A DNA stretch of 64,000 nt from Micavibrio sp. (GTDB lineage Bacteria; Patescibacteriota; Minisyncoccia; Moranbacterales; GCA-2747515). The DNA is taken from the NCBI GenBank assembly GCA_020718085.1, contig DYDB01000005.1:4109-68108 (forward strand), read 5' to 3'. This document shows, piece after piece, positions 45,788-57,991 of the stretch. The notes under the pieces are model-generated. The model was not told where the DNA came from and made no database searches. It was given only the letters and a program-made list of their open reading frames with translations. A program made the translations under genes and the position numbers. Position 1 is the first letter of the stretch. The number at the start of each line of letters is the position of its first letter.

Positions 45788-48442
45788 ATGCGCACGATCG
45801 CTGTTTTTATATTAATATTCTCTCTTCTTTTTAAATTACAATTTGTTTGTGCAGAAAATAGCTCATCACCAGAAATTTTAAAAGATGCAGATGAAGAAGC
45901 AATAGAATCTCCATCAGAAATTGAAAATATATCAGACACAATAGAAGAAAACACATCTTTGCAACCACCTACGGAGGTCATTACAGCAGAAGATCCCAAA
46001 AAATCTATTGATGTGACAAATGGTGCTGAAACGACAATGGAACAACCTTCCGTTCAAGTAACCGAAGAACTCGTTGAGGCCCACACACAAGAAATGACTC
46101 CCTTACAAAGGATCGATCAAGATCCCTCATTAAAAATGCAGGAAAATAAGCAAAAGAAACCACTTGCACAATCCAAGGACATTTCTCTCAATGAAATTTT
46201 AGCTGATCCTGAATCCGGCAACGAATTTATCGAGATTCTAAACACAACAGACCGCCCCTTGAGTTTAGATGGGTGGTACTTATGTGACTTGTCTACATAT
46301 GATTCTGTAAATCAACAATGTGATAAAACAAGATCAAATACATATAAATTTTCACATACAAATATTGATTCGCATGCACTGATCACATTATATACAAAAA
46401 TACATATTAAATTTGGCCTCAATAATACGAGTGAAGAAATTTTCATTGAAGATGATTCTCAACACATCATTGATCATTATGCATATAAAACTTCTCACAA
46501 GGGCAAAAGCTGGAACAGCGATCCATTACAATGGTATGAAGAAACACCCACGCCAAATGCACAAAATATGCCAAATCCTCTCACAAAAGAATATCCCAAC
46601 ATTATCTTGAATGAAATTTTTCCACATCCCAAGGATAATCCAAATGATAATGAATTTATTGAAATATATAATCCCTTAAATGAAGATGTATCATTAGAGA
46701 ATTGGAAACTGATTGACGCCTCGCAATCAGGGTCATTTATATTTTCTTCTACGTCATTTACACCTTGCATCACAGATCCAGTCACGTGTTTTATTGTTCC
46801 CAAAAAAAGTTTTGTGACAGTGTACAGAAGTGACTTTGATTTTGCACTTAATGATAGTGGACCAGAAATAGTTTCTTTGGTCGCACCAAATAATAAAATT
46901 ATTTCCACCATGAGCTATGAAAACTCCGCGGAATCACTGTCACTCAATTTTTCCGCAAAGTGGTATCAGGCAGAGCCCACGCCCGGGAAAGAAAATGTTC
47001 CCGATCCACAAACACAAGCTTATCCCCAAATCCTACTCACAGAAATCCTTCCAAATCCGATTGGGGAAGAAAGTCTGAGAGAATACATCGAATTATATAA
47101 TCCTTTCGATGTGCCGGTTGATCTCAAAAACTGGACACTGCAAGATGCATCTGCTACCAGTCACCATGTCTTTTCGGACAATCTGTTCATCGCCCCATAT
47201 AGTTATCATGTGATCTATCGCGATGCGTTTATATTTGCACTAAATAACAACAAGGAAACTGTATCGCTTGTGGCGCCAAACAGTCAAATAATGAGCAAAA
47301 TATCTTATATCACGTCACGTGAAAACATTGCCTATAGTTATGATATATTAGATAAAAAATGGCGCTGGACCAAACATCTTACACCTGGCGCAAAAAATAT
47401 ATTTAACGACCTTCCTCAAATTTCACAAATTAACATCTCGCCCATCGCTTATAAAAACGTCTACACAAGTTTTACAGTCAGTGCAAAAGATCCAAACAAC
47501 GAACAACTTGCCGTTCGGTGGGATTTTGGCGATGACCACCGAAGTTATTTATGGAATACACGCCACAAGTATGTGTCCGAGGGCATCTATAACGGATCAC
47601 TACGCGTTCAAGATGAAAGCGAGGAGGTCATACACCACTTTACGGTTACTGTGCAAAAATATCCGAAATATGATCTCAAGATCAACAAGATCGCACCAAA
47701 TCCTTCCGGCAAAGATACTGGCGTGGAATATCTCATGATCCATAATCGCTCAAAGAAAGACATTGATCTGAATGGCTGGAGCATCGCAACAGGTTCAACA
47801 AAAAAGACACTTGTCAATCATCCTGTGAATCGCAAATTTACGATCAAAAAAGGCGGTTTGAAGATGATGACGCATAAATATGCCGCCATCACACTTCCCA
47901 ATAAAACTGGCGTCATTGAATTACGTCGACCGGATGGAACTGTAGCTGACCATATATCCTATGGTGATGCATCTCGATCAATTAAAAATGATGCATCTTT
48001 TGAATTGATTGATAATAAGTGGACATGGATCATTCCGGAAAACACTGCTAAAAAACAAGAAACACTTGCAATAATCATGCAAGCAATTGCAAACGAAGAT
48101 GCACTCTACCAACAAAAAAAAGAGCGTGAAATTGCATATGCTAAAATCCATGTTCCCAAAAATAATAATGCTTCCATGCATTTAGCTCATACAAGATATG
48201 CATTTTTGACATACTTATCAGAAGGGATAAATATTTTTCTTGCAAAGCATATTCCCTACATACAAAAAGAACTGATCGTTTTTTGGAAAGAACATACAAA
48301 AACAAAATGGGAACCTGCTGTTTATAAAATTGCCAATGCAAAAAGTCGTTGTTCAATCACACCTATTTTTGCACTGAATAATTCAAAATATGATTTTTGT
48401 GTAGAAAATAAATCAAACACTACTTTCATAAAAAATTTTTAG
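45788..48442 (+). CDS. Secreted protein with four lamin-tail-domain (LTD) repeats and a PKD-like domain
   Basis: Signal peptide. The four LTD repeats are 'NEILADP..NEFIEILN...LDGWYL', 'NEIFPHP...NEFIEIYNP...LENWKL', 'TEILPNP...REYIELYNP...LKNWTL' and 'INKIAPNP...VEYLMIHN...LNGWSI'. The PKD-like segment is 'VRWDFGDDHRS...HKY...G.Y.GSLRV'. Confidence 0.75.
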   Translation: MRTIAVFILIFSLLFKLQFVCAENSSSPEILKDADEEAIESPSEIENISDTIEENTSLQPPTEVITAEDPKKSIDVTNGAETTMEQPSVQVTEELVEAHTQEMTPLQRIDQDPSLKMQENKQKKPLAQSKDISLNEILADPESGNEFIEILNTTDRPLSLDGWYLCDLSTYDSVNQQCDKTRSNTYKFSHTNIDSHALITLYTKIHIKFGLNNTSEEIFIEDDSQHIIDHYAYKTSHKGKSWNSDPLQWYEETPTPNAQNMPNPLTKEYPNIILNEIFPHPKDNPNDNEFIEIYNPLNEDVSLENWKLIDASQSGSFIFSSTSFTPCITDPVTCFIVPKKSFVTVYRSDFDFALNDSGPEIVSLVAPNNKIISTMSYENSAESLSLNFSAKWYQAEPTPGKENVPDPQTQAYPQILLTEILPNPIGEESLREYIELYNPFDVPVDLKNWTLQDASATSHHVFSDNLFIAPYSYHVIYRDAFIFALNNNKETVSLVAPNSQIMSKISYITSRENIAYSYDILDKKWRWTKHLTPGAKNIFNDLPQISQINISPIAYKNVYTSFTVSAKDPNNEQLAVRWDFGDDHRSYLWNTRHKYVSEGIYNGSLRVQDESEEVIHHFTVTVQKYPKYDLKINKIAPNPSGKDTGVEYLMIHNRSKKDIDLNGWSIATGSTKKTLVNHPVNRKFTIKKGGLKMMTHKYAAITLPNKTGVIELRRPDGTVADHISYGDASRSIKNDASFELIDNKWTWIIPENTAKKQETLAIIMQAIANEDALYQQKKEREIAYAKIHVPKNNNASMHLAHTRYAFLTYLSEGINIFLAKHIPYIQKELIVFWKEHTKTKWEPAVYKIANAKSRCSITPIFALNNSKYDFCVENKSNTTFIKNF

Positions 48443-48569: not shown

Positions 48570-49856
48570 ATGCACCAATTGACAGTGATTATTTGTGGCG
48601 CATTACTTGGTACGGCATTTTACTATTTGTGCATATATTTGCTTAAAGTAGAAAAAAATCGCACATTTGTACAAGAGAACAACTATCTACATCCAAATAG
48701 CATTTGCTACATACGTACCGTATTGGCATGGTGTGGATACATTGCGTACTTCTTTTATGGATGGCAGGCATGCGGTATCATCGTTTTTACATTTGCGGCA
48801 ATTCTTGACGGCGTTGACGGTCTTGTTGCGCGTCAATGCAATTTGATCACAAAAAAAGGCGAGTCTCTGGACCCGCTTTGTGACAAACTTACATACTTGC
48901 CGCCACTAATCAGTTTTGCATATGATGGTTTTTTGACCATCTGGCTCGTATGGTTGTTCGTTGCCCTGGAATTTTGTGGACAATTTTTTGCGCGCACATT
49001 GTTGGAAAAATTTGATCTTTCTGTATCAGCCAACAACTTTGGCAAGATCAAAACGATCATCAGCTTCATGCTTGTAATCCTTTGTGCACTTAGCGATGCA
49101 AACCCTCATTGGTTCAATATGAACGAAGAGATCTTGGTTTTATGCATACTTCTTGGCTGTGCATCTGTTGTTTTCAAATTTGTAAATCGATCGCTGTATG
49201 CAGATATTTTCTCAATCCTTAATATGATCAGTGGTGTTATCTCTATCATCCTGGCAGTATGTGGACACATCACATTTGCCGTACTTACAGTGGTAATCGG
49301 ACAACTGTTTCATTTGTTGGATGGATACGCCGCGAAAAAATTTGCCATCACGCGATTTAGTGATTCTCTTGATCATTTGGCAGACTTGATCAGCTTTGTT
49401 TTATGTCCATTGGTCATTGTGTCGGTTCGTTGTGGTGACATTGGTATACTACCGGCGTTTGTTTATCTATTATGTGCCGCATATCATGTTACCACACATA
49501 ATTCACACAATACTTCCACCGCTGTATTCACGGGTTTATCCCCAGCTGCTGGCACTATGTCAATTTTGGGCGCATGCTTGGCACTCAACACAACAGGCAT
49601 TGTTATTTTGACCATGCTCGTTTCCATATTGTTAGTAAGTCACATTCGTCTCATGTATTTTGGTGCAATGGTGCGTAAAAAAGCACCTCGACCCGTACTA
49701 TTCGTCGTGAGCGCAGCCATTTTGGTCATCCTTGCATATGTAGTAAAATCACAAGATGCCCAATCCCTTGGCTATTCCATGATCTTATGTACAACGATAT
49801 ATTTTGTGTGTAGTTTTTATTTGTCACGCACATATAAAAATATCGAGATGGCCTAA
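48570..49856 (+). CDS. CDP-alcohol phosphatidyltransferase family membrane protein with two copies of the catalytic motif
   Basis: 'DGVDGLVARQCNLITKKGESLDPLCDKL' matches D-G-x2-A-R...G-x3-D-x3-D. A second copy is 'DGYAAKKFAITRFSDSLDHLAD'. Confidence 0.6.
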   Translation: MHQLTVIICGALLGTAFYYLCIYLLKVEKNRTFVQENNYLHPNSICYIRTVLAWCGYIAYFFYGWQACGIIVFTFAAILDGVDGLVARQCNLITKKGESLDPLCDKLTYLPPLISFAYDGFLTIWLVWLFVALEFCGQFFARTLLEKFDLSVSANNFGKIKTIISFMLVILCALSDANPHWFNMNEEILVLCILLGCASVVFKFVNRSLYADIFSILNMISGVISIILAVCGHITFAVLTVVIGQLFHLLDGYAAKKFAITRFSDSLDHLADLISFVLCPLVIVSVRCGDIGILPAFVYLLCAAYHVTTHNSHNTSTAVFTGLSPAAGTMSILGACLALNTTGIVILTMLVSILLVSHIRLMYFGAMVRKKAPRPVLFVVSAAILVILAYVVKSQDAQSLGYSMILCTTIYFVCSFYLSRTYKNIEMA

Positions 49857-50723: not shown

Positions 50724-51236
50724 ATGGTTCGTATATTAGGTATAGATCCTGGAACGGCAATTGTGGGATGGGGTGTGATTGATTATAATTCGCAAAAACT
50801 CTCCAGCGCAGTTGTTGCATATGGTCACATTGAAACACCCGCGACACTTACTGACGCTGCACGTCTTGATGAAATTCATTCCGGCATCATTGATCTGATC
50901 AAAACATACAAGCCACAAGAAGCTGGGATTGAAGCGTTGTTTTATTTTAAAAATGCAAAGACTGTGATCACGGTTGCACAGGCACGTGGTGTAATTTTGC
51001 ACACCTGTTATAGACATCACCTTATCATTGGAGAATACACGCCTCTGCAAATAAAACAATCATTAACAGGTTATGGTCGCGCCAATAAAAATCAAATGCA
51101 GGAAATGATCAAAAACGTGTTAAAATTAAAAAAGATACCAGAGCCTGATGACACAGCTGATGCACTCGCTGTTGCAATCTGTCATAGTAATTCTCGCAAG
51201 TATTTACAAACCATTAAATCTCGCATTTATGCCTGA
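50724..51236 (+). CDS. ruvC: Crossover junction endodeoxyribonuclease RuvC
   Basis: 'ILGIDPGTAIVGWGV' carries the catalytic Asp. Size 170 aa. Follows yebC. Confidence 0.9.
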   Translation: MVRILGIDPGTAIVGWGVIDYNSQKLSSAVVAYGHIETPATLTDAARLDEIHSGIIDLIKTYKPQEAGIEALFYFKNAKTVITVAQARGVILHTCYRHHLIIGEYTPLQIKQSLTGYGRANKNQMQEMIKNVLKLKKIPEPDDTADALAVAICHSNSRKYLQTIKSRIYA

Positions 51237-51921
51237 ACTATATTACAATCCGTTGATCAATTTTCTTCTCATGCAACACGTTGATATTTCCACAATCACC
51301 CTTCTTTTACTTTTTCCTGTAATCGTGACAGTTGTGGTAGTTTTGCGTCAAATTGTCGGCATTCAAGCTTTTGGTATTTATACACCATCAATCATCACAC
51401 TTGCATTCGTCTTTATTGGACAACAGCGCTGGTCGGATATCAAATATGCCATCATGGTCTATGTCACAGTGCTTTGTGTTGGCATGATGATGCGCTATGT
51501 GCTCAAAAAACTTAGACTTCTTTACTTACCACGCGTTGCCATAACCCTTACAGTTGTATCCTTTTCTGTTTTGGCAATTCTTGCTTTTGGCGGCAGCATG
51601 GGTCGCACAGGATTTGCATCAGCTCCCATTTTTCCCATTCTCATCATCATCATGCTAGTAGAAAAATTTGTAACTGTGCAAATCGAAAAAGGTTCGCGCA
51701 CAGCAATTATTCTTGCTGTTGAAACACTTTTTATCGCATTGGTGGGATATACAATTCTTTCTCCTACGACGATCATTGGTAAAACATTTATCAGCTTTAC
51801 CCTTATTCATACATGGGTTGTTCTCCTCATTATCCCAATCAACCTCTTCATCGGAAAATGGACCGGCTTGCGTCTTAGTGAGTATTTGCGTTTCCGAGAC
51901 GTTATCAAAAAAATTCAATAA
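51229..51921 (+). CDS. Polytopic (roughly 7-TM) membrane protein, first gene of the ATP-grasp cluster
   Basis: Six to seven hydrophobic helices. The ATG at 51229 is translationally coupled to the ruvC stop. The ORF-track start at 51148 overlaps ruvC. Confidence 0.55.
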   Translation: MPELYYNPLINFLLMQHVDISTITLLLLFPVIVTVVVVLRQIVGIQAFGIYTPSIITLAFVFIGQQRWSDIKYAIMVYVTVLCVGMMMRYVLKKLRLLYLPRVAITLTVVSFSVLAILAFGGSMGRTGFASAPIFPILIIIMLVEKFVTVQIEKGSRTAIILAVETLFIALVGYTILSPTTIIGKTFISFTLIHTWVVLLIIPINLFIGKWTGLRLSEYLRFRDVIKKIQ

Positions 51922-51932
51922 TATTTGCGCTC

Positions 51933-53342
51933 ATGTTTATGTTGTTTTCCGCAAGCAAAAAGATTCTCGGGATGAATGCACGCAATCTCACCTACATTCG
52001 TCCAAATAATCGCAAAAAAGCGAAACGCCTTGCCGATGAAAAAATTACATCAAAGAAATTGCTCAAAAAAGCGGGAGTGCCTGTTCCGCGACTGATCGCA
52101 CAAATTTCTTCCCGTCGAACTTTGGAAAATTTTGACTGGACTATTCTTCCACCAAGCTTTGTACTTAAACCGAATCGCGGTTTGGGTGGTGATGGCATTA
52201 TTGTGGTATATGGTAGAAAAAAAGGTTCTACAGATACATGGGTGAGATCCAATGGCAAGCCAATCACGATCACAGATCTCAAAATGCACATCGGACATAT
52301 TCTTGATGGTGAATTTTCTCTTTCGGGCACACCGGACTTTGCTTTTTTTGAAGAACGTCTTAAACTTTCCAAAGAATTTCGCCCCTATGCCTACAGAGGA
52401 ATACCAGATATTCGTGTGATCGTTTATAATAAAGTTCCTGTCATGGCAATGTTGCGACTTCCGACAAAGGAGTCCGATGGAAAAGCAAATCTCCAACAAG
52501 GAGGAATAGGCGTGGGAATTGATATGGCTCGTGGTATCACTACAACGGCGGTGCAGGGGAAGTCACGCATTGTGGAGTACGTACCTGACACGCGACTTTT
52601 GCTTTCTGGTATTAAAATTCCTTATTGGGATGAGATTCTTCATCTTGCCATTAAATCACAAATCGCTTCGGGACTTGGTTATCTCGGTGCAGATATTGCG
52701 ATCGATCGTGACAATGGGCCAGTAATACTTGAACTTAATGCACGACCAGGTCTTTCCATTCAAGTTGCAAATCTCGCTGGACTTAAACGTCGTCTTGAGC
52801 GTGTAGAGGGACTCAAAATCAATACCATTGCTCGAGGCATTGCTGTTGGTAAAAATCTTTTTGGCGGTGAGATCGAAGAAGAACTTGAAAGTGTTTCAGG
52901 GAAAAGCGTCATCGGTCCAGTGGAAAAAGTTGAGATCATTGGCATCGCAAATAAAAAGATAACCACACAAGCAAAGATCGACACTGGCGCATATTCCACA
53001 TCAATCGACACTGAGCTTGCCCGTGAACTTGGCTTTGGACCAACAATTGATTCATTTGCCAAGATCGACCTCACGGAGTTTGGAGAAGTCACTGAAAAAG
53101 GCCTCGGGATAGGCAAAAAGATTGAAAAAAAATATGGTAGTCGCATCCCTCATCTCATTGAAACATCCGTAACATGGTCTTCCAGCGGCGTCACAATTCG
53201 TCCGATCGTAAAACTCACATTTGTCATGGACAAAAAATCCATCACAACAAAAGTGAACATCGTGGATCGCAGCGACCTAAAATACAATATGATCATCGGT
53301 AAAAGAAACCTTGGAAAATTTCTTGTAGATGTCAGTAAATAA
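51933..53342 (+). CDS. ATP-grasp ligase (alpha-L-glutamate-ligase-related / RimK-like) fused to a C-terminal retropepsin-like (DUF785/RimB-type) domain
   Basis: The N-terminus 'LGMNARNLTYIRPNN...LLKKAGVPVP...FVLKPNRGLGGDGIIVV' has an ATP-grasp core. The C-terminus 'QAKIDTGAYSTSI' is a D-T/S-G-A aspartic-protease-like motif. Confidence 0.7.
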   Translation: MFMLFSASKKILGMNARNLTYIRPNNRKKAKRLADEKITSKKLLKKAGVPVPRLIAQISSRRTLENFDWTILPPSFVLKPNRGLGGDGIIVVYGRKKGSTDTWVRSNGKPITITDLKMHIGHILDGEFSLSGTPDFAFFEERLKLSKEFRPYAYRGIPDIRVIVYNKVPVMAMLRLPTKESDGKANLQQGGIGVGIDMARGITTTAVQGKSRIVEYVPDTRLLLSGIKIPYWDEILHLAIKSQIASGLGYLGADIAIDRDNGPVILELNARPGLSIQVANLAGLKRRLERVEGLKINTIARGIAVGKNLFGGEIEEELESVSGKSVIGPVEKVEIIGIANKKITTQAKIDTGAYSTSIDTELARELGFGPTIDSFAKIDLTEFGEVTEKGLGIGKKIEKKYGSRIPHLIETSVTWSSSGVTIRPIVKLTFVMDKKSITTKVNIVDRSDLKYNMIIGKRNLGKFLVDVSK

Positions 53343-53450
53343 AAGATCATTTTTTTAGACACATATCCTGTGATGTGTCCAATCTGTCATATGTAGACAT
53401 AATCGACACTTCTCTTTTTTACTACTGATATATTTTTATACACACTTTTT

Positions 53451-54338
53451 ATGAAAATTGCATATTTTGGATACAAAAAAGAGAGTTATGCTCCCAAAAC
53501 CATTATCGACTTTTGTAAAAAAAATGGTCACAAAATTACATTTTTCAATGTTGATGATCTACTTTTCTGTAATGGCACCCTAACTAAAAATTTATCACCC
53601 TTAAATTTAGATGATTTTGATGCAGCAATTATCCGTAGTCATGGAAGAGTGACCGATGATACCTATCAAGAAAATTTTGTTTTTACATATCACATAAATA
53701 AGTTACTGCATGATCACTCCATCCCAACGATCAATGGCGCCTTTTTTATTAAAAATCCCTTTTTTGATAAGTTCTCACAATCCCTTTTTTTCGCCCAAAG
53801 AGATATTCCGACAATTCCGACAATCTACAGCGCGTCACCATCTAAACTGCAAAGGAAACATATTCCTTGGGACTTTCCTCTGATCATAAAGGAGATCAAT
53901 GGCTCTTTTGGCTTATCTGTACACAAAATCGATATGTACACAGATTTGGCCATCTGGACTAAAAAAAATCCACATGCACAGATCATTCTACAACAGTTTA
54001 TTCCAGCCACATGTGATTATCGCGTGATCGTTTGTGGAAAAAAAGCGCTAGGCATCATGAGAAGATCCAGCATATCAAATGGATGGAAGCATAATTTTTC
54101 CCAAGGTGCTACAATAGAGGCATACTCTGATGAGCGCATGTCCAAATTTGCCGAACATGTGGCACAAAAATTGCACTGTGATTTTGTTGGTGTGGATATT
54201 ATCGTTGATCAGAAAGGAAATTATTTGGTTGTTGAAATAAACTTATCTGCAAATTTTAAGGGCTTTGAAAAAATTCATGCCAAATATCTTGTAGGAAAAA
54301 ACATTATTGAAACACTTGCTCAAAAAAAAATTTATTAA
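53451..54338 (+). CDS. RimK-like ATP-grasp ligase
   Basis: 'PLIIKEINGSFGLSVHK' matches the K...G.G ATP-grasp motif. Size and layout are RimK-like. Confidence 0.7.
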   Translation: MKIAYFGYKKESYAPKTIIDFCKKNGHKITFFNVDDLLFCNGTLTKNLSPLNLDDFDAAIIRSHGRVTDDTYQENFVFTYHINKLLHDHSIPTINGAFFIKNPFFDKFSQSLFFAQRDIPTIPTIYSASPSKLQRKHIPWDFPLIIKEINGSFGLSVHKIDMYTDLAIWTKKNPHAQIILQQFIPATCDYRVIVCGKKALGIMRRSSISNGWKHNFSQGATIEAYSDERMSKFAEHVAQKLHCDFVGVDIIVDQKGNYLVVEINLSANFKGFEKIHAKYLVGKNIIETLAQKKIY

Positions 54339-54348
54339 GATCATCTCT

Positions 54349-55209
54349 ATGAAAAGATCATTTGCTATTATTGGACCAAAAAGATCACAAAATACCATGG
54401 ATCTTCATAATGAGATCGAAAAACGTGGACATGCCTGCACTATATACACTATCAATGATATATCCGTCAATACACAAAATTATGCTTTGCACCCGTTTTT
54501 TTCTCATGATATTTATTTATTCCGCGGGTACAATAGATCAATTGGTTTTGCACGATCACTTGCCACAATACTCCATTCACTTCATAAAACAGTTATAGAT
54601 AACATTCTGTATACATCGACCCTGAGCAATAAATTTCAAGAATCCATTCTATTAAAAGAAAGAAATATACCACAACCACCAACATATTATGCTTGCTCTT
54701 CGCAACAATGGGAGTTTATTTTGAAAGACATCTCCTTTCCTCTTGTTGTAAAACCCATAAATGGTCAACAGGGACAGGGTATTCACAAATGCTTTACAAT
54801 GGAAGAAGTGCTTGATGTTGTCAAAAGTGATGAAAAAAACTTCATTGCACAAGAATTTTTACCCGCTGATGGAGATGTGCGCATTTTCATAGTCGATCAA
54901 GAGATATTGGGAGCAATAAAACGATTTATCATACCAGGTGATTTCAGATCAAATGCTTCGCTAGGCGCTCGTACCGAAACATATCATTTGTCATCAAAAG
55001 AAAAAGAAATTGCCTTAGCTGCTCATAAGGCATTGGGATATAATGTTTCCGGTGTTGATATGATCATTTCACATGATAAACAGTACATATTAGAGGTGAA
55101 CCACACACCGCAGTGGCAAGCATTTAAGAGAACGACAGACATACATCCGGAACCACATATAATCAATTTTGCATTACACCAATATGAAAAAGAAAATCGG
55201 CTTCAATAA
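54349..55209 (+). CDS. RimK-like ATP-grasp ligase
   Basis: 'PLVVKPINGQQGQGI' and 'GDFRSNASLGARTE' closely parallel E. coli RimK 'PLVVKLVEGTQGIGV' and 'GDFRSNLHRGG'. 'LEVNHTPQW' is also present. The ORF-track start at 54307 overlaps the previous gene, so Met 54349 is preferred. Confidence 0.8.
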   Translation: MKRSFAIIGPKRSQNTMDLHNEIEKRGHACTIYTINDISVNTQNYALHPFFSHDIYLFRGYNRSIGFARSLATILHSLHKTVIDNILYTSTLSNKFQESILLKERNIPQPPTYYACSSQQWEFILKDISFPLVVKPINGQQGQGIHKCFTMEEVLDVVKSDEKNFIAQEFLPADGDVRIFIVDQEILGAIKRFIIPGDFRSNASLGARTETYHLSSKEKEIALAAHKALGYNVSGVDMIISHDKQYILEVNHTPQWQAFKRTTDIHPEPHIINFALHQYEKENRLQ

Positions 55210-56119
55210 AAAAATACAAGGCATTTTTGATGCACAAATGATCTTGCAGATAAAGGAATCTCTATCAAAAAAAATTGATTGCGAGATAATAGATGTTGAT
55301 TTTCGTGAGGGGGTCATCATAAATGATCGCGTTTTTGTCAACGATATATGTCTTAATGACTTGGACCTATATTTTTGGCATGATACCGTTTACCCTCGTG
55401 TGTGGGGTGCTGACAATCACTTTTTGCACATTTTATCCGTATTGGAAAAAACTACTCCAGTTGTAAACTCAAGTAATAGCACGCGCATTGTAAATGACAA
55501 ATTTCTCGCACATTCCGCTCTCAAAAACGCTCATATTCCCGTGGGGGATTTTGCACTCGTACGAGCTGACGATACACAAAATCTTCGTCGTATTTTTTCA
55601 CTATTTAACAACGATGTCCTCCTAAAACCACGCTTCGGTGGCTGGGGAATCGGTATCGCACGCGCCACAAAAATTGACGAGCTTCTGAGCACTGTAGAAT
55701 ATATGATGAGTTTTGTACCGAGATCACATCAATCCATTCTGATTGAAAAATTTCACAAAAATGATCTTTCCAAGTGGATATCTGTTGCACTATTTGGAGA
55801 TAAGATCCTCTTTGGTTATAGAAAACAGCTCATGGGAGATGCCGACTGGAAGATCTACGACCCAAAAAAGATCGACGGAAAAGGTTTGCTTTCCACATTT
55901 ATCGATCCTCCACAAGAAGCAAAAAATATCGTTCTGGCCGCACAAAAAGCAATCGGAAAAGACATTATCGGATTTGATCTCATTTACACAGAAGATGGCT
56001 ATAAGATCATCGATGAGAATGGGCGTCCCGGTTTATATAAAAATTGCATCGATACTGCAGGAATTGATATAGCCTCTGAAATAACAGTGCTTGTAGAGAA
56101 AAAATTTGACCAAATATAA
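55169..56119 (+). CDS. ATP-grasp ligase, divergent fourth paralog
   Basis: 'LLKPRFGGWGIGIARA' is the ATP-grasp K...G.G motif. 'IGFDLIYTEDGYKIIDENGRPG' is also present. Confidence 0.65.
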   Translation: MHYTNMKKKIGFNKKIQGIFDAQMILQIKESLSKKIDCEIIDVDFREGVIINDRVFVNDICLNDLDLYFWHDTVYPRVWGADNHFLHILSVLEKTTPVVNSSNSTRIVNDKFLAHSALKNAHIPVGDFALVRADDTQNLRRIFSLFNNDVLLKPRFGGWGIGIARATKIDELLSTVEYMMSFVPRSHQSILIEKFHKNDLSKWISVALFGDKILFGYRKQLMGDADWKIYDPKKIDGKGLLSTFIDPPQEAKNIVLAAQKAIGKDIIGFDLIYTEDGYKIIDENGRPGLYKNCIDTAGIDIASEITVLVEKKFDQI

Positions 56120-56131
56120 AACTGTTTACTA

Positions 56132-57991
56132 CTATATATTTTCCAAAGATGCTTCCTCCGAAGCATCTTTTTGTTCTTTGAGAAGATATTGATCTTTAAT
56201 CCGATCCCATATTGCAAAAACATGTTTTTGTGCCGTCTGAATTTCTCCTGTATCCATAAGGCCAATCTCTAGAAGCGTAGTAAGAGTGGAGAGATTCATA
56301 CCGGAAAAAAATAAATATTTTTCCAAACCTTTTTCTTGTAGTTTTCGTGCGAGCATAATTTGTTCAAGATATGCCGTATCTTTGCTTTTTGTAAGATGTG
56401 CTGATGATAAACTAAGATCAGCACTATGGCGAAAGAGTCGTTTTGCACGAGCTATCGCCAATCGTATTTGTTCTCTATTTTGTTTTTCGAACTCATCATC
56501 AGATATTTGATTCATTTTCTTCTTCTGAAGCAAAGTGTGTGCACTACTATCATAAGATGCCTTTACACAGTCCATATAGTTACCACCTTCCATTTTTTTG
56601 ATCATTGCACGTACATAATGCGGATTCCCGAGTGACCCTGTGCCAAATATTTCTCGCGCGACATGATCCTGCAACAACATTGCTCCGCCTTCGGCAAAAA
56701 CACTGGAGCGATCCCCTTTGATCTTTTTAAAAAGTCGTAGCGGTATTTTGGAGCTATTGATCGATTGAAGGACATGCCCGATTTCGTGACCGAGCGCTAC
56801 TGTCATCGTATGATAAATATCCTTATTTTTTGTATCAGATTTGATAACTTTTTGTTTTCCATCTATGCTCATGGATTTATAACTATCCTTTGCAATAAAT
56901 TGCCATTTATCGTCCGGCGCCGCACCACTGCGCTTAGCATCATATGTTTCCGGACCGTATGCACTTTTAAGTCCGTACATTTCCAAAAGCTCATTAATGA
57001 GAGTTGTGATTTTCTCAATCGACATATCTTTTGCAAAAACCTTTTCCGGGTCATAGCCTTTTTCCACAATTTTCTGATATTTTTCACTATTACTGCGTTC
57101 ATATTCCACGGAAATCTGCTCGGCGAAACTTTTTAACGTATCACTAATTTGTACACGTTCCCCCTCTGTATAATTCTTATCAGCACCATGGATAAATTTA
57201 TCTCTCCGTGAAAGATTTTTTTGCACATTTTGCATGCCCTTTTGCATTTTTAACAACTCTTTTTCTTCCTCCGTCAATAGATCCTCACCAATAGTTTGCA
57301 TCAGATCCACAACAAGTGAGCTATCAAAAAAATCTTCCGTCAATATCTGATTGTATTTTTTTCTGTATAATTCAATGATCTTTTTCTTCGCAAGATCACA
57401 TTGACTCATATTGCTCAAAGATGCATTGATTTTTTTTACATCATTTTTAAATACTGTTAATTCTGCAATTTTGCCCGCCAATTTTTCTGGCGTTAATAGC
57501 ACATCAATACCTCGCGGATTTGGAATTTCTTTTATATCAATAGTATTTAGTTCATCATTGCGCACAGATAATTGATGCAATAGCATCTCATCATAATATT
57601 TCACAGAAAGCGCTGCGAGGCTTTTTAGATCATCATATTTAACCTGCCGCAAAACATCCCTGTTCAAAAATAGTGTCTTTTTAATATCCTGTTCATTATC
57701 CATATCTGACAAAGTCACACCTGTCACTTGCTCAAATTTGTCACGCCCTTGTGACGTTAAAAAATATTCCACATAAAATGTCACTTTTTGCACTGTGATA
57801 TCGGTAATTTTTTCGAAACGTTTTCCAAGAGCATCCTCAAAATCAAGTATTTCTTCTCGTTCTTGCTCTGACAATCTCATCGGTTGAATCAATTTTCTTT
57901 CAAACCCGTCAACAATATCAACTTGTTCATCAAGGCGATCGAACATACGCTGTGGATATAAAGACTGTTTTTCTATTGACCCCTGTTCCAT
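56132..57991 (-). CDS. DUF1704-like zincin metallopeptidase (HExxH), MATCAP/KIAA0895-like. Convergent with the ATP-grasp genes.
   Basis: 'ALGHEIGHVLQ' is HExxH. The downstream 'FAEGGAMLLQ' is an xEGxA motif. Size 619 aa. Confidence 0.6.
   Translation of the reverse strand: MEQGSIEKQSLYPQRMFDRLDEQVDIVDGFERKLIQPMRLSEQEREEILDFEDALGKRFEKITDITVQKVTFYVEYFLTSQGRDKFEQVTGVTLSDMDNEQDIKKTLFLNRDVLRQVKYDDLKSLAALSVKYYDEMLLHQLSVRNDELNTIDIKEIPNPRGIDVLLTPEKLAGKIAELTVFKNDVKKINASLSNMSQCDLAKKKIIELYRKKYNQILTEDFFDSSLVVDLMQTIGEDLLTEEEKELLKMQKGMQNVQKNLSRRDKFIHGADKNYTEGERVQISDTLKSFAEQISVEYERSNSEKYQKIVEKGYDPEKVFAKDMSIEKITTLINELLEMYGLKSAYGPETYDAKRSGAAPDDKWQFIAKDSYKSMSIDGKQKVIKSDTKNKDIYHTMTVALGHEIGHVLQSINSSKIPLRLFKKIKGDRSSVFAEGGAMLLQDHVAREIFGTGSLGNPHYVRAMIKKMEGGNYMDCVKASYDSSAHTLLQKKKMNQISDDEFEKQNREQIRLAIARAKRLFRHSADLSLSSAHLTKSKDTAYLEQIMLARKLQEKGLEKYLFFSGMNLSTLTTLLEIGLMDTGEIQTAQKHVFAIWDRIKDQYLLKEQKDASEEASLENI

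Follow-up and report, generated by a model that had tools for sequence, protein, structure and literature searches.

A probable Candidate Phyla Radiation variant of the RimK–RimB and RloABC ligase–peptidase systems with an additional kind of peptidase

Among the described systems, the Rlo system of Pseudomonas aeruginosa is one of the closest to the locus considered here, a cluster of six genes in a 64,000-nucleotide stretch (hereafter the window) of a Patescibacteria (Candidate Phyla Radiation, CPR) contig, DYDB01000005.1, whose sequence is also found in NCBI assembly GCA_017973895.1. Three secreted retropepsins of this species, RloA1-3, cut runs of at least eight glutamates (Lormand et al. 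2025, mBio; PMC12239564), and hypo-osmotic survival, biofilm formation, antibiotic tolerance, and cell shape all depend on them (PMC12239564). The triple-protease mutant is suppressed by deletion of rloB, which encodes an inactive transglutaminase combined with a seven-transmembrane (7TM) module, or of rloC, which encodes an ATP-grasp protein; that work did not identify the natural product or substrate, and it found that 96% of RloB matches come from Proteobacteria (PMC12239564). A further point of reference is provided by the eukaryotic MATCAP/TMCP enzymes, carboxypeptidases with an unusual HExxxH motif that also deglutamylate (PMC10499314). We found no published description of a CPR system of this kind, or of the peptidase family described below, in the literature searched, the survey by Iyer et al. 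2009 lying outside its coverage.

The cluster consists of a 7TM membrane protein, four ATP-grasp ligases, the first of which carries a fused retropepsin, and a MATCAP-related peptidase. We consider it probable that this locus is a CPR variant of the RimK–RimB and RloABC ligase–peptidase systems to which one extra kind of peptidase has been added, and that it adds and removes short amino-acid tails. An earlier note on this DNA had proposed a system of four ligases and one peptidase that tags and untags C-termini, and the six open reading frames (ORFs) and all the motifs that it quoted (GDFRSNASLGARTE, AKIDTGAYSTSI, ALGHEIGHVLQ, and FAEGGAMLLQ) are real and appear in the ORF listing of the window at the positions that it gave. 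The general idea of ligase writers and peptidase erasers, the MATCAP-like fold, and the linkage of the genes have all held up, while the kinship of the first two genes to the Rlo system had been missed.

The 7TM–fusion core and the RimK-like ligases

The 7TM protein matches 7TM_transglut (PF14402; E = 1.6e-27, 97 bits against a cutoff of 25) and corresponds to positions 313-507 of the 508 positions of the NCBIfam RloB model (84 bits against a cutoff of 900). According to both Pfam and NCBIfam, the transglutaminase domain is absent from this 230-residue protein, which is the membrane module alone. Seven hydrophobic helices fit the sequence, as judged by eye, and Pfam recognised no transporter domain in it. 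A basic, juxtamembrane C-terminal motif, LGKWxGLRxSEYxRFR, is kept across 24 orthologs, and this basic tail suggests that the C-terminus is cytoplasmic. The initiation codon of the gene overlaps the ruvC stop codon (8 nucleotides, ATGCCTGA), in agreement with the coupling to ruvC and the approximately seven helices that had been proposed for it.

The second gene encodes a fusion of a ligase and a protease. It matches ATPgrasp_ST (PF14397) with an E-value of 5.9e-70 and 236 bits (cutoff 31.4), and its ligase domain scores 288.7 bits against TIGR02291, slightly below the cutoff of 314.2. Residues 334-467 match the Zn_protease/RimB-like family PF05618 (E = 4.6e-8, 33.5 bits, cutoff 27), and in NCBIfam the C-terminal domain matches the RloA retropepsins, with the catalytic D-T/S-G motif present; the aspartic-protease-like domain of the earlier note is thus a retropepsin. 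More than 7,800 homologs were matched, and the best 120 of these are at least 62% identical, are of equal length and architecture, and carry generic annotation only; among these 120, DTGA, K..G.G.G, and DxR are found in every sequence and GKAN in 119. Judged from their sequences, the first two genes of the cluster represent a variant form of the rloB/rloC/rloA system described in P. aeruginosa. K348 of the fusion is almost invariant and R423 and R446 are invariant in the homolog alignments, and these residues probably correspond to the polyglutamate-binding K46, R114, and R137 of RloA. Among the structures nearest to the ligase domain, ArgX is the best, and three of the four nearest (ArgX/LysX/RimK) act on protein C-termini.

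Between its two domains, the fusion contains an acidic linker, LFGGEIEEELE, in which L309-E313, E315, and E319 are invariant (alignments A4 and A5, in which overall identity falls as low as 48%). Disorder is predicted for residues 313-328, which have a predicted local distance difference test score (pLDDT) below 50. This linker might serve as a pseudo-substrate, be cut by the fusion itself in the manner of retroviral proteins, or prime glutamylation. No signal peptide, hydrophobic segment, or transmembrane segment was found in any of the soluble proteins of the cluster (the maximum KD19 of the fusion is 1.04), and all of them, including both peptidases, are cytoplasmic.

All four ligase ORFs pass ATP-grasp models (PF14397 or PF08443), as the earlier note expected. 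Ligases 2, 3, and 4 share around 25% pairwise identity, which makes them old paralogs and not the product of a recent duplication. Ligase 3 is the most RimK-like of the three: it has the full catalytic set, including GDFRSN, matches PF08443 with an E-value of 6.4e-34 and the PDB RimK structure 7qyr with one of 1.8e-20, and reaches 149 bits against TIGR00768, over the cutoff of 143.4. The other two remain under that cutoff, with 102.7 bits for ligase 2 (PF08443 E = 2.3e-21), whose catalytic motifs are complete except for a lysine in place of arginine in R-x-N, and 70.8 bits for ligase 4 (PF08443 E = 1e-11), whose closest PDB structure is of the LysX type (3vpd, E = 1.5e-9). For ligase 4, a start at ATG 55184 (311 residues, as in the NCBI record) is more likely than one at TTG 55169 (316 residues). 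Against the model for the true ribosomal protein S6 ligase (equivalog NF007764, cutoff 331), no ligase of the cluster scores above 76.7 bits.

Purifying selection acts on each of the six genes, which are thus real genes, as shown by ratios of nonsynonymous to synonymous substitution (dN/dS) of 0.009-0.23 when the window is compared with L003, a relative that is 83-99% identical. The lowest values are those of the 7TM gene (0.009) and the fusion gene (0.027), which are more tightly constrained than the housekeeping genes yebC (0.081) and ruvC (0.103), and the peptidase gene reaches 0.116 (values for ligases 2 to 4 are given in Table 1). Given that CPR genomes are shorn of most non-essential functions, this level of constraint indicates that the product of the core genes is probably important for CPR physiology.

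The metallopeptidase and its family

The last protein of the cluster, of 619 residues, has no significant sequence match in Pfam, NCBIfam, or PDB, even at permissive thresholds, and its link to MATCAP was reached through a bridging sequence combined with structure. A word-indexed search with this protein returned only 14 relatives and one weak match, P0015, a marginal but real member of the MATCAP family PF08014 (33.5 bits against a cutoff of 27). In hhalign, a profile of 12 peptidase sequences aligned with P0015 at 97.5% (E = 8e-12) over 223 columns that span HE..H, xEGGA, and later motifs, and a profile of 56 sequences aligned at 96.8% (E = 3e-10) with a second PF08014 protein (52.9 bits), the gene of which adjoins that of a family member in locus L024. 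The nearest folds of the 619-residue protein include MATCAP and the M32 family, with uncharacterised DUF885 proteins ranked between them. Thus, profile comparison and modelled structure together identify it as a true but distant relative of MATCAP/DUF1704. The DUF1704 label that the earlier note had given it is sustained as remote homology, in profile alignment and in fold, and fails as family membership, as the protein does not pass the DUF1704 hidden Markov model, a result that the note itself had named as speaking against its proposal.

Searched exhaustively with a profile, a set of 1.84 billion representatives yielded 482 members of the family, 235 of them at E ≤ 1e-30, and most are full-length proteins of around 600 residues. 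Among 56 diverse members, G269, H402, E403, H406, E434, Y541, and E543 are invariant, E434 being the glutamate within AEGGA. Of 21 motif matches in the family, 17 have the form HExxxH (HEIEGH). A helical N-terminal region of around 350 residues lies beyond the part aligned to PF08014 proteins, and residues 608-619 of the window protein are not conserved and have a pLDDT below 50. Given that just one of the 56 members reaches PF08014 itself (E = 1.9e-4), we regard these proteins as a separate sister family of MATCAP/DUF1704 that has no model of its own. By analogy with several of its nearest folds, namely MATCAP and the M32 family, which are carboxypeptidases in character, the enzyme would be a carboxypeptidase acting on acidic C-terminal tails.

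The gene neighbourhood of the bridging protein P0015 contains no ATP-grasp gene. In loci L024 (7992-9305) and L028 (3222-4526), a canonical PF08014 paralog of around 430 residues is found beside or near a 600-residue family member and an ATP-grasp gene, and two MATCAP-like types are thus present in one locus.

Distribution, linkage, and surroundings

Members of the peptidase family occur in 31 species-representative genomes, each belonging to the CPR, from Moranbacteria, Parcubacteria, Paceibacteria, Peribacteria, Gracilibacteria, and other lineages; the nearest relatives of the window carry the labels Moranbacteria or Moraniibacteriota. Three arrangements can be distinguished. In group A (12 loci, plus the window, L003, L004, and L007), the order is YebC–RuvC–7TM–fusion–[1-3 ATP-grasp genes ± GNAT or YdjC]–peptidase–PBP1, where PBP is a penicillin-binding protein. 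Group B (seven loci) has 7TM–fusion–[0-3 ATP-grasp genes]–peptidase between flanks of SufBD and RNase H, and its proteins are 42% (7TM), 56% (fusion), and 28% (peptidase) identical to those of the window. The remaining loci, group C, have the peptidase and no fusion.

The 7TM and fusion genes lie upstream of the peptidase gene on the same strand in 19 of the 31 loci, the RloC-type ATP-grasp adjoins its Rlo-type partners in 19 species-level loci, and an ATP-grasp gene lies within 3 kb of the peptidase in 22 of 28 informative species-level loci. The minimal form, L035, consists of 7TM, fusion, and peptidase only; there and in L007, the peptidase follows immediately 3′ of the fusion on the same strand. 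Five loci without the fusion (L001, L006, L014, L024, and L028) still have another ATP-grasp gene beside the peptidase. Gene order and strand vary between loci, and recurrence in differing chromosomal contexts despite such rearrangement argues for a functional linkage. The earlier note had set co-location in relatives as a check of its proposal, and co-location is indeed found across several CPR classes and in two chromosomal contexts.

Several of these loci present individual features of their own. In L014 (2626-3396), a divergent ATP-grasp gene of 256 codons lies 7 bp downstream of the peptidase gene, and its product passes the Pfam thresholds for both RimK (24.4 bits) and tubulin-tyrosine ligase (23.3 bits, cutoff 20.1). 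The peptidase gene is split in L026, L034, and L038. Among the three loci sampled from the fusion side, the position usually taken by the peptidase is occupied by YdjC, a methyltransferase, or a RimK–DUF3541 fusion, the last being a protein of 589 residues in L041 (9608-11377). Neither DUF3541 of L041 (hhalign, 1%) nor the 321-residue protein in the slot of L042 (0.1%) is a hidden relative of the peptidase.

Table 1. Features of the cluster and its surroundings in the window (dN/dS: window against L003)
Feature	Position	Strand	Support or remarks
RloB-type 7TM membrane protein, 230 aa	51229..51921	+	Pfam, NCBIfam RloB, dN/dS, conserved C-terminal motif
RloC-type ATP-grasp ligase domain of fusion (51933-53342), aa 1-308	51933..52856	+	PF14397, TIGR02291
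Acidic inter-domain linker of fusion, aa 309-328	52857..52916	+	Invariant residues, pLDDT
RimB/RloA-type retropepsin domain of fusion, aa 329-469	52917..53342	+	PF05618; catalytic DTGA aa 350-353, nt 52980-52991
RimK-like ATP-grasp ligase 2, 295 aa	53451..54338	+	PF08443, TIGR00768, motif alignment A2, dN/dS 0.233
RimK-family ligase 3, 286 aa	54349..55209	+	PF08443, TIGR00768, PDB, dN/dS 0.061
Divergent LysX/RimK-like ATP-grasp paralog (ligase 4), 311 aa	55184..56119	+	PF08443, PDB, dN/dS 0.095
Perfect 11-bp palindromic hairpin with T-rich tail	56145..56170	+	Terminator-like scan; 26 nt past ligase-4 stop
Gluzincin peptidase, 619 aa	56132..57991	-	HEIGH nt 56774-56788 (aa 402-406); AEGGA nt 56681-56695 (aa 433-437)
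DciA, DnaN, DnaA	60781-63720	-	Directly after PBP1

In the window, the cluster follows YebC and RuvC and is followed by a class-A PBP, DciA, DnaN, and DnaA, and this last order places it within about 5 kb of the probable region of the replication origin. The hairpin beyond ligase 4 sits within the last codons of the convergent peptidase gene (KDASEEAS), in its non-conserved 3′ end, and may be a terminator shared by the two genes. Two further genes lie outside the cluster. The first (45788-48442) encodes a protein of 884 residues with a hydrophobic, signal-like N-terminus, possibly a large surface protein; in L003 and L041, homologs bearing lamin-tail (LTD) and PKD domains are encoded upstream of YebC–RuvC. 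The second (48570-49856) encodes a membrane protein of 428 residues in which PF01066 (CDP-alcohol phosphatidyltransferase) matches two regions, and it looks like an internally duplicated lipid synthase.

Interpretation and comparison with known systems

The best reading of the system is a cytoplasmic and membrane-associated one. The RloC-type ligase, possibly together with its paralogs, would spend ATP to add amino acids to an acceptor, presumably the C-terminus of a protein or peptide, and the amino acid added would most likely be alpha-linked L-glutamate, by analogy with RimK, RimB, and RloA. The ligase or ligases would act at the cytoplasmic face of the membrane, and docking on the conserved basic LGKWxGLRxSEYxRFR tail of the 7TM protein is plausible. 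Once two fusion subunits pair, the retropepsin domain would become active and make internal cuts in long acidic chains, and the MATCAP-like enzyme would strip C-terminal residues singly, clearing short stubs beyond the reach of an endopeptidase that needs at least eight glutamates. The single eraser of the earlier note would thus give way to an endo-eraser and a probable exo-eraser. As for physiology, a role in envelope or osmotic homeostasis is suggested by analogy: the rlo genes have phenotypes that concern hypo-osmotic survival and the envelope (PMC12239564), an RloB mutant of Shewanella overproduces membrane vesicles, and low salt strongly co-induces RimK, a GshB-like ATP-grasp gene, and a DUF1704/QEGLA gene in Photobacterium.

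Several observations weigh against this reading. The 619-residue protein has no PF08014 match at E-values up to 10, and in the lineage of the window a one-residue deletion has turned the HExxxH of the family into HEIGH, that is, HExxH. In ligase 4, the D-x-R motif is gone (WIS), as is the asparagine of R-x-N, so that RDIRVF has become SKWISV. Glutamate enters the scheme by analogy; neither a small ORF with an acidic tail nor a LysW-like acceptor is conserved near any of the loci, and the gene for ribosomal protein S6 is absent from the window. Two single cases can be recorded here, namely an ORF of 75 residues with the acidic tail EEPEESED in L006 (1352-1579), upstream of and divergent from the peptidase, and an ORF of 30 residues in L041. 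Both the secreted protease of Pseudomonas and the periplasmic domain of RloB are missing here, and the physiology may therefore differ from that of Pseudomonas. Finally, the peptidase is absent from all three of the loci sampled from the fusion side, six loci have no ATP-grasp gene near the peptidase, and the peptidase gene is fragmented in two Moranbacteria genomes (L039 9001-9216 and L040 9001-10039); the fragmented and split genes could reflect ongoing loss or frameshifts in the assemblies.

These absences and decayed copies indicate that the peptidase is an accessory module and that the core is formed by the 7TM protein and the fusion, which are usually accompanied by RimK-like ligases. 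The number and type of these extra ligases vary between species, from 0 to 3, and the set of four is thus specific to a lineage and does not constitute a fixed pathway. Together with the loss of D-x-R from ligase 4, this speaks against the stepwise heteropolymer that the earlier note had drawn from the four ligases.

RimK itself is known to make free poly-alpha-glutamate, and the Rlo paper found no protein substrate and leaves "polyE peptides" possible (PMC12239564). As an alternative to the tagging of proteins, the cluster might make a free poly-amino acid or short peptide, for example poly-alpha-glutamate, in the role of an osmolyte, a metabolite, or a polymer of the envelope or surface, with the 7TM protein exporting or anchoring the product and the two peptidases setting chain length or recycling it. 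No acceptor encoded in cis turned up at the loci, the phenotypes of the RloB family (hypo-osmotic survival and, in Shewanella, vesicle overproduction) concern the envelope, and the GNAT, YdjC, and methyltransferase genes of the accessory slot would suit the tailoring of a small molecule or polymer. Nevertheless, of the four structures closest to the ligase domain, three (ArgX/LysX/RimK) act on protein C-termini, the MATCAP family works on protein tails, the 7TM protein has no transporter domain that Pfam recognises, and the cytoplasmic location of both peptidases would be odd for an exported product; on balance, we regard synthesis of a free polymer as a possible but rather unlikely alternative.

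It is very unlikely, in our view, that the cluster is an accident of position in which a self-contained Rlo-like unit of 7TM protein and fusion has as neighbours RimK paralogs and an HExxH protein with other tasks, such as S6 modification or peptide turnover, their adjacency near the origin being inherited synteny. The region YebC-RuvC...PBP1-DciA-DnaN-DnaA is indeed syntenic in group A, where adjacency is therefore partly inherited, the peptidase of the window is on the opposite strand, and the three loci with the fusion and no peptidase, as well as the six with a peptidase and no nearby ATP-grasp gene, would fit such independence. However, the whole set of 7TM, fusion, ligase, and peptidase recurs in group B with other flanks at 28-56% identity, the peptidase stands right behind the fusion on the same strand in L007 and L035, and the five fusion-less loci named above keep another ATP-grasp gene beside it. 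A different role, shared with the adjacent PBP1, would be the editing of peptidoglycan peptides, in which the ligases would extend stem peptides or cross-bridges, as do Ddl and the D-aspartate ligase of Enterococcus, and the peptidases would trim them. A class-A PBP gene abuts the cluster in all group-A loci, and Rlo mutants have cell-shape and ampicillin phenotypes (PMC12239564), but group B has no PBP neighbour, the best matches of the ligases are RimK, LysX, and ArgX instead of Ddl, and cell-wall metabolism is not known to involve a polyglutamate-binding retropepsin alongside a MATCAP-like enzyme, all of which makes this role highly improbable. Anti-phage defence was rejected, as PADLOC gave no match for any of the six proteins.

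If the locus is a ligase–peptidase system of the RimK–RimB and RloABC kind, it extends the Rlo and Rim systems to the CPR in a stripped-down and entirely cytoplasmic form, and the presence of writer and eraser in one polypeptide would make the locus convenient, as a minimal system, for identifying the product of RloC-type ligases. The peptidases are a new protein family without a Pfam model (482 cluster representatives) that links eukaryotic MATCAP to prokaryotic ATP-grasp operons, and they provide a testable hypothesis on the origin of the writer and eraser logic of MATCAP and TTL. A bolder proposal, which we consider unlikely, is that CPR bacteria run a reversible "tail code" at the membrane, in which RimK/TTL-like ATP-grasp writers lengthen the C-terminus of one specific protein and two complementary erasers, the retropepsin endopeptidase fused to a writer and a MATCAP-type carboxypeptidase, shorten it again, and that the pairing of ATP-grasp and MATCAP-like enzymes is ancestral to the eukaryotic cycle of tubulin tyrosination and glutamylation. 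In Photobacterium at low salt, RimK (52-fold), a GshB-like ATP-grasp gene (38-fold), and the DUF1704/QEGLA gene with the next locus tag (27.5-fold) are co-induced, and the last two may be a trace of such a pairing.

Compared with the tubulin tail cycle (TTL/TTLL against MATCAP/TMCP, CCP, and vasohibin), the logic is alike, in that residues of an acidic C-terminal tail would be added by ATP-grasp enzymes and removed by a metallopeptidase of the MATCAP type, and some neighbouring ligases match TTL weakly, as in L014. This likeness is functional only. Tubulin is absent here, and the ligases belong to a RimK-like type instead of being true TTL enzymes. The peptidase also stands apart from MATCAP/TMCP (KIAA0895L and KIAA0895) and the bacterial DUF1704 "QEGLA motif" proteins (PF08014, TIGR02421), as it fails the Pfam and NCBIfam models, has the helical N-terminal region of around 350 residues and, in the window, the shortened HExxH, and belongs to a family found only in CPR genomes. 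With LysX/ArgX–LysW, whose ligases join an amino acid to the C-terminal glutamate of a small protein, the locus shares the closeness of ArgX (the best match) and LysX to the ligase domain of the fusion and of LysX-type enzymes to ligase 4, but the scores are far under the LysX equivalog cutoff, and the cluster contains neither a LysW-like carrier nor genes for lysine or arginine biosynthesis.

The two systems named in our preferred reading are nearer. Like RimK–RimB (rimABK, S6 glutamylation), the locus would combine a cytoplasmic alpha-L-glutamate ligase of the RimK family with a cytoplasmic retropepsin that trims polyglutamate, and ligase 3 passes TIGR00768. It differs in lacking RimA, in having its protease fused to a ligase of the RloC/ATPgrasp_ST type instead of RimK proper, in that no ligase reaches the S6-ligase equivalog NF007764, and in also encoding a 7TM partner and a metallopeptidase. 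With RloABC, it shares within one cluster a 7TM_transglut protein (RloB), a TIGR02291/ATPgrasp_ST ligase (RloC), and a PF05618 retropepsin with DTG (RloA), and the probable counterparts of the polyglutamate-binding basic residues of RloA are kept in the fusion. Whereas RloA is secreted, the protease here lacks a signal peptide and forms the C-terminal part of a fusion with a cytoplasmic ligase, and the membrane protein is without the periplasmic inactive-transglutaminase domain of RloB. To this Rlo-like core, the locus adds three RimK-like ligases and a MATCAP-like peptidase, and its host is a CPR bacterium.

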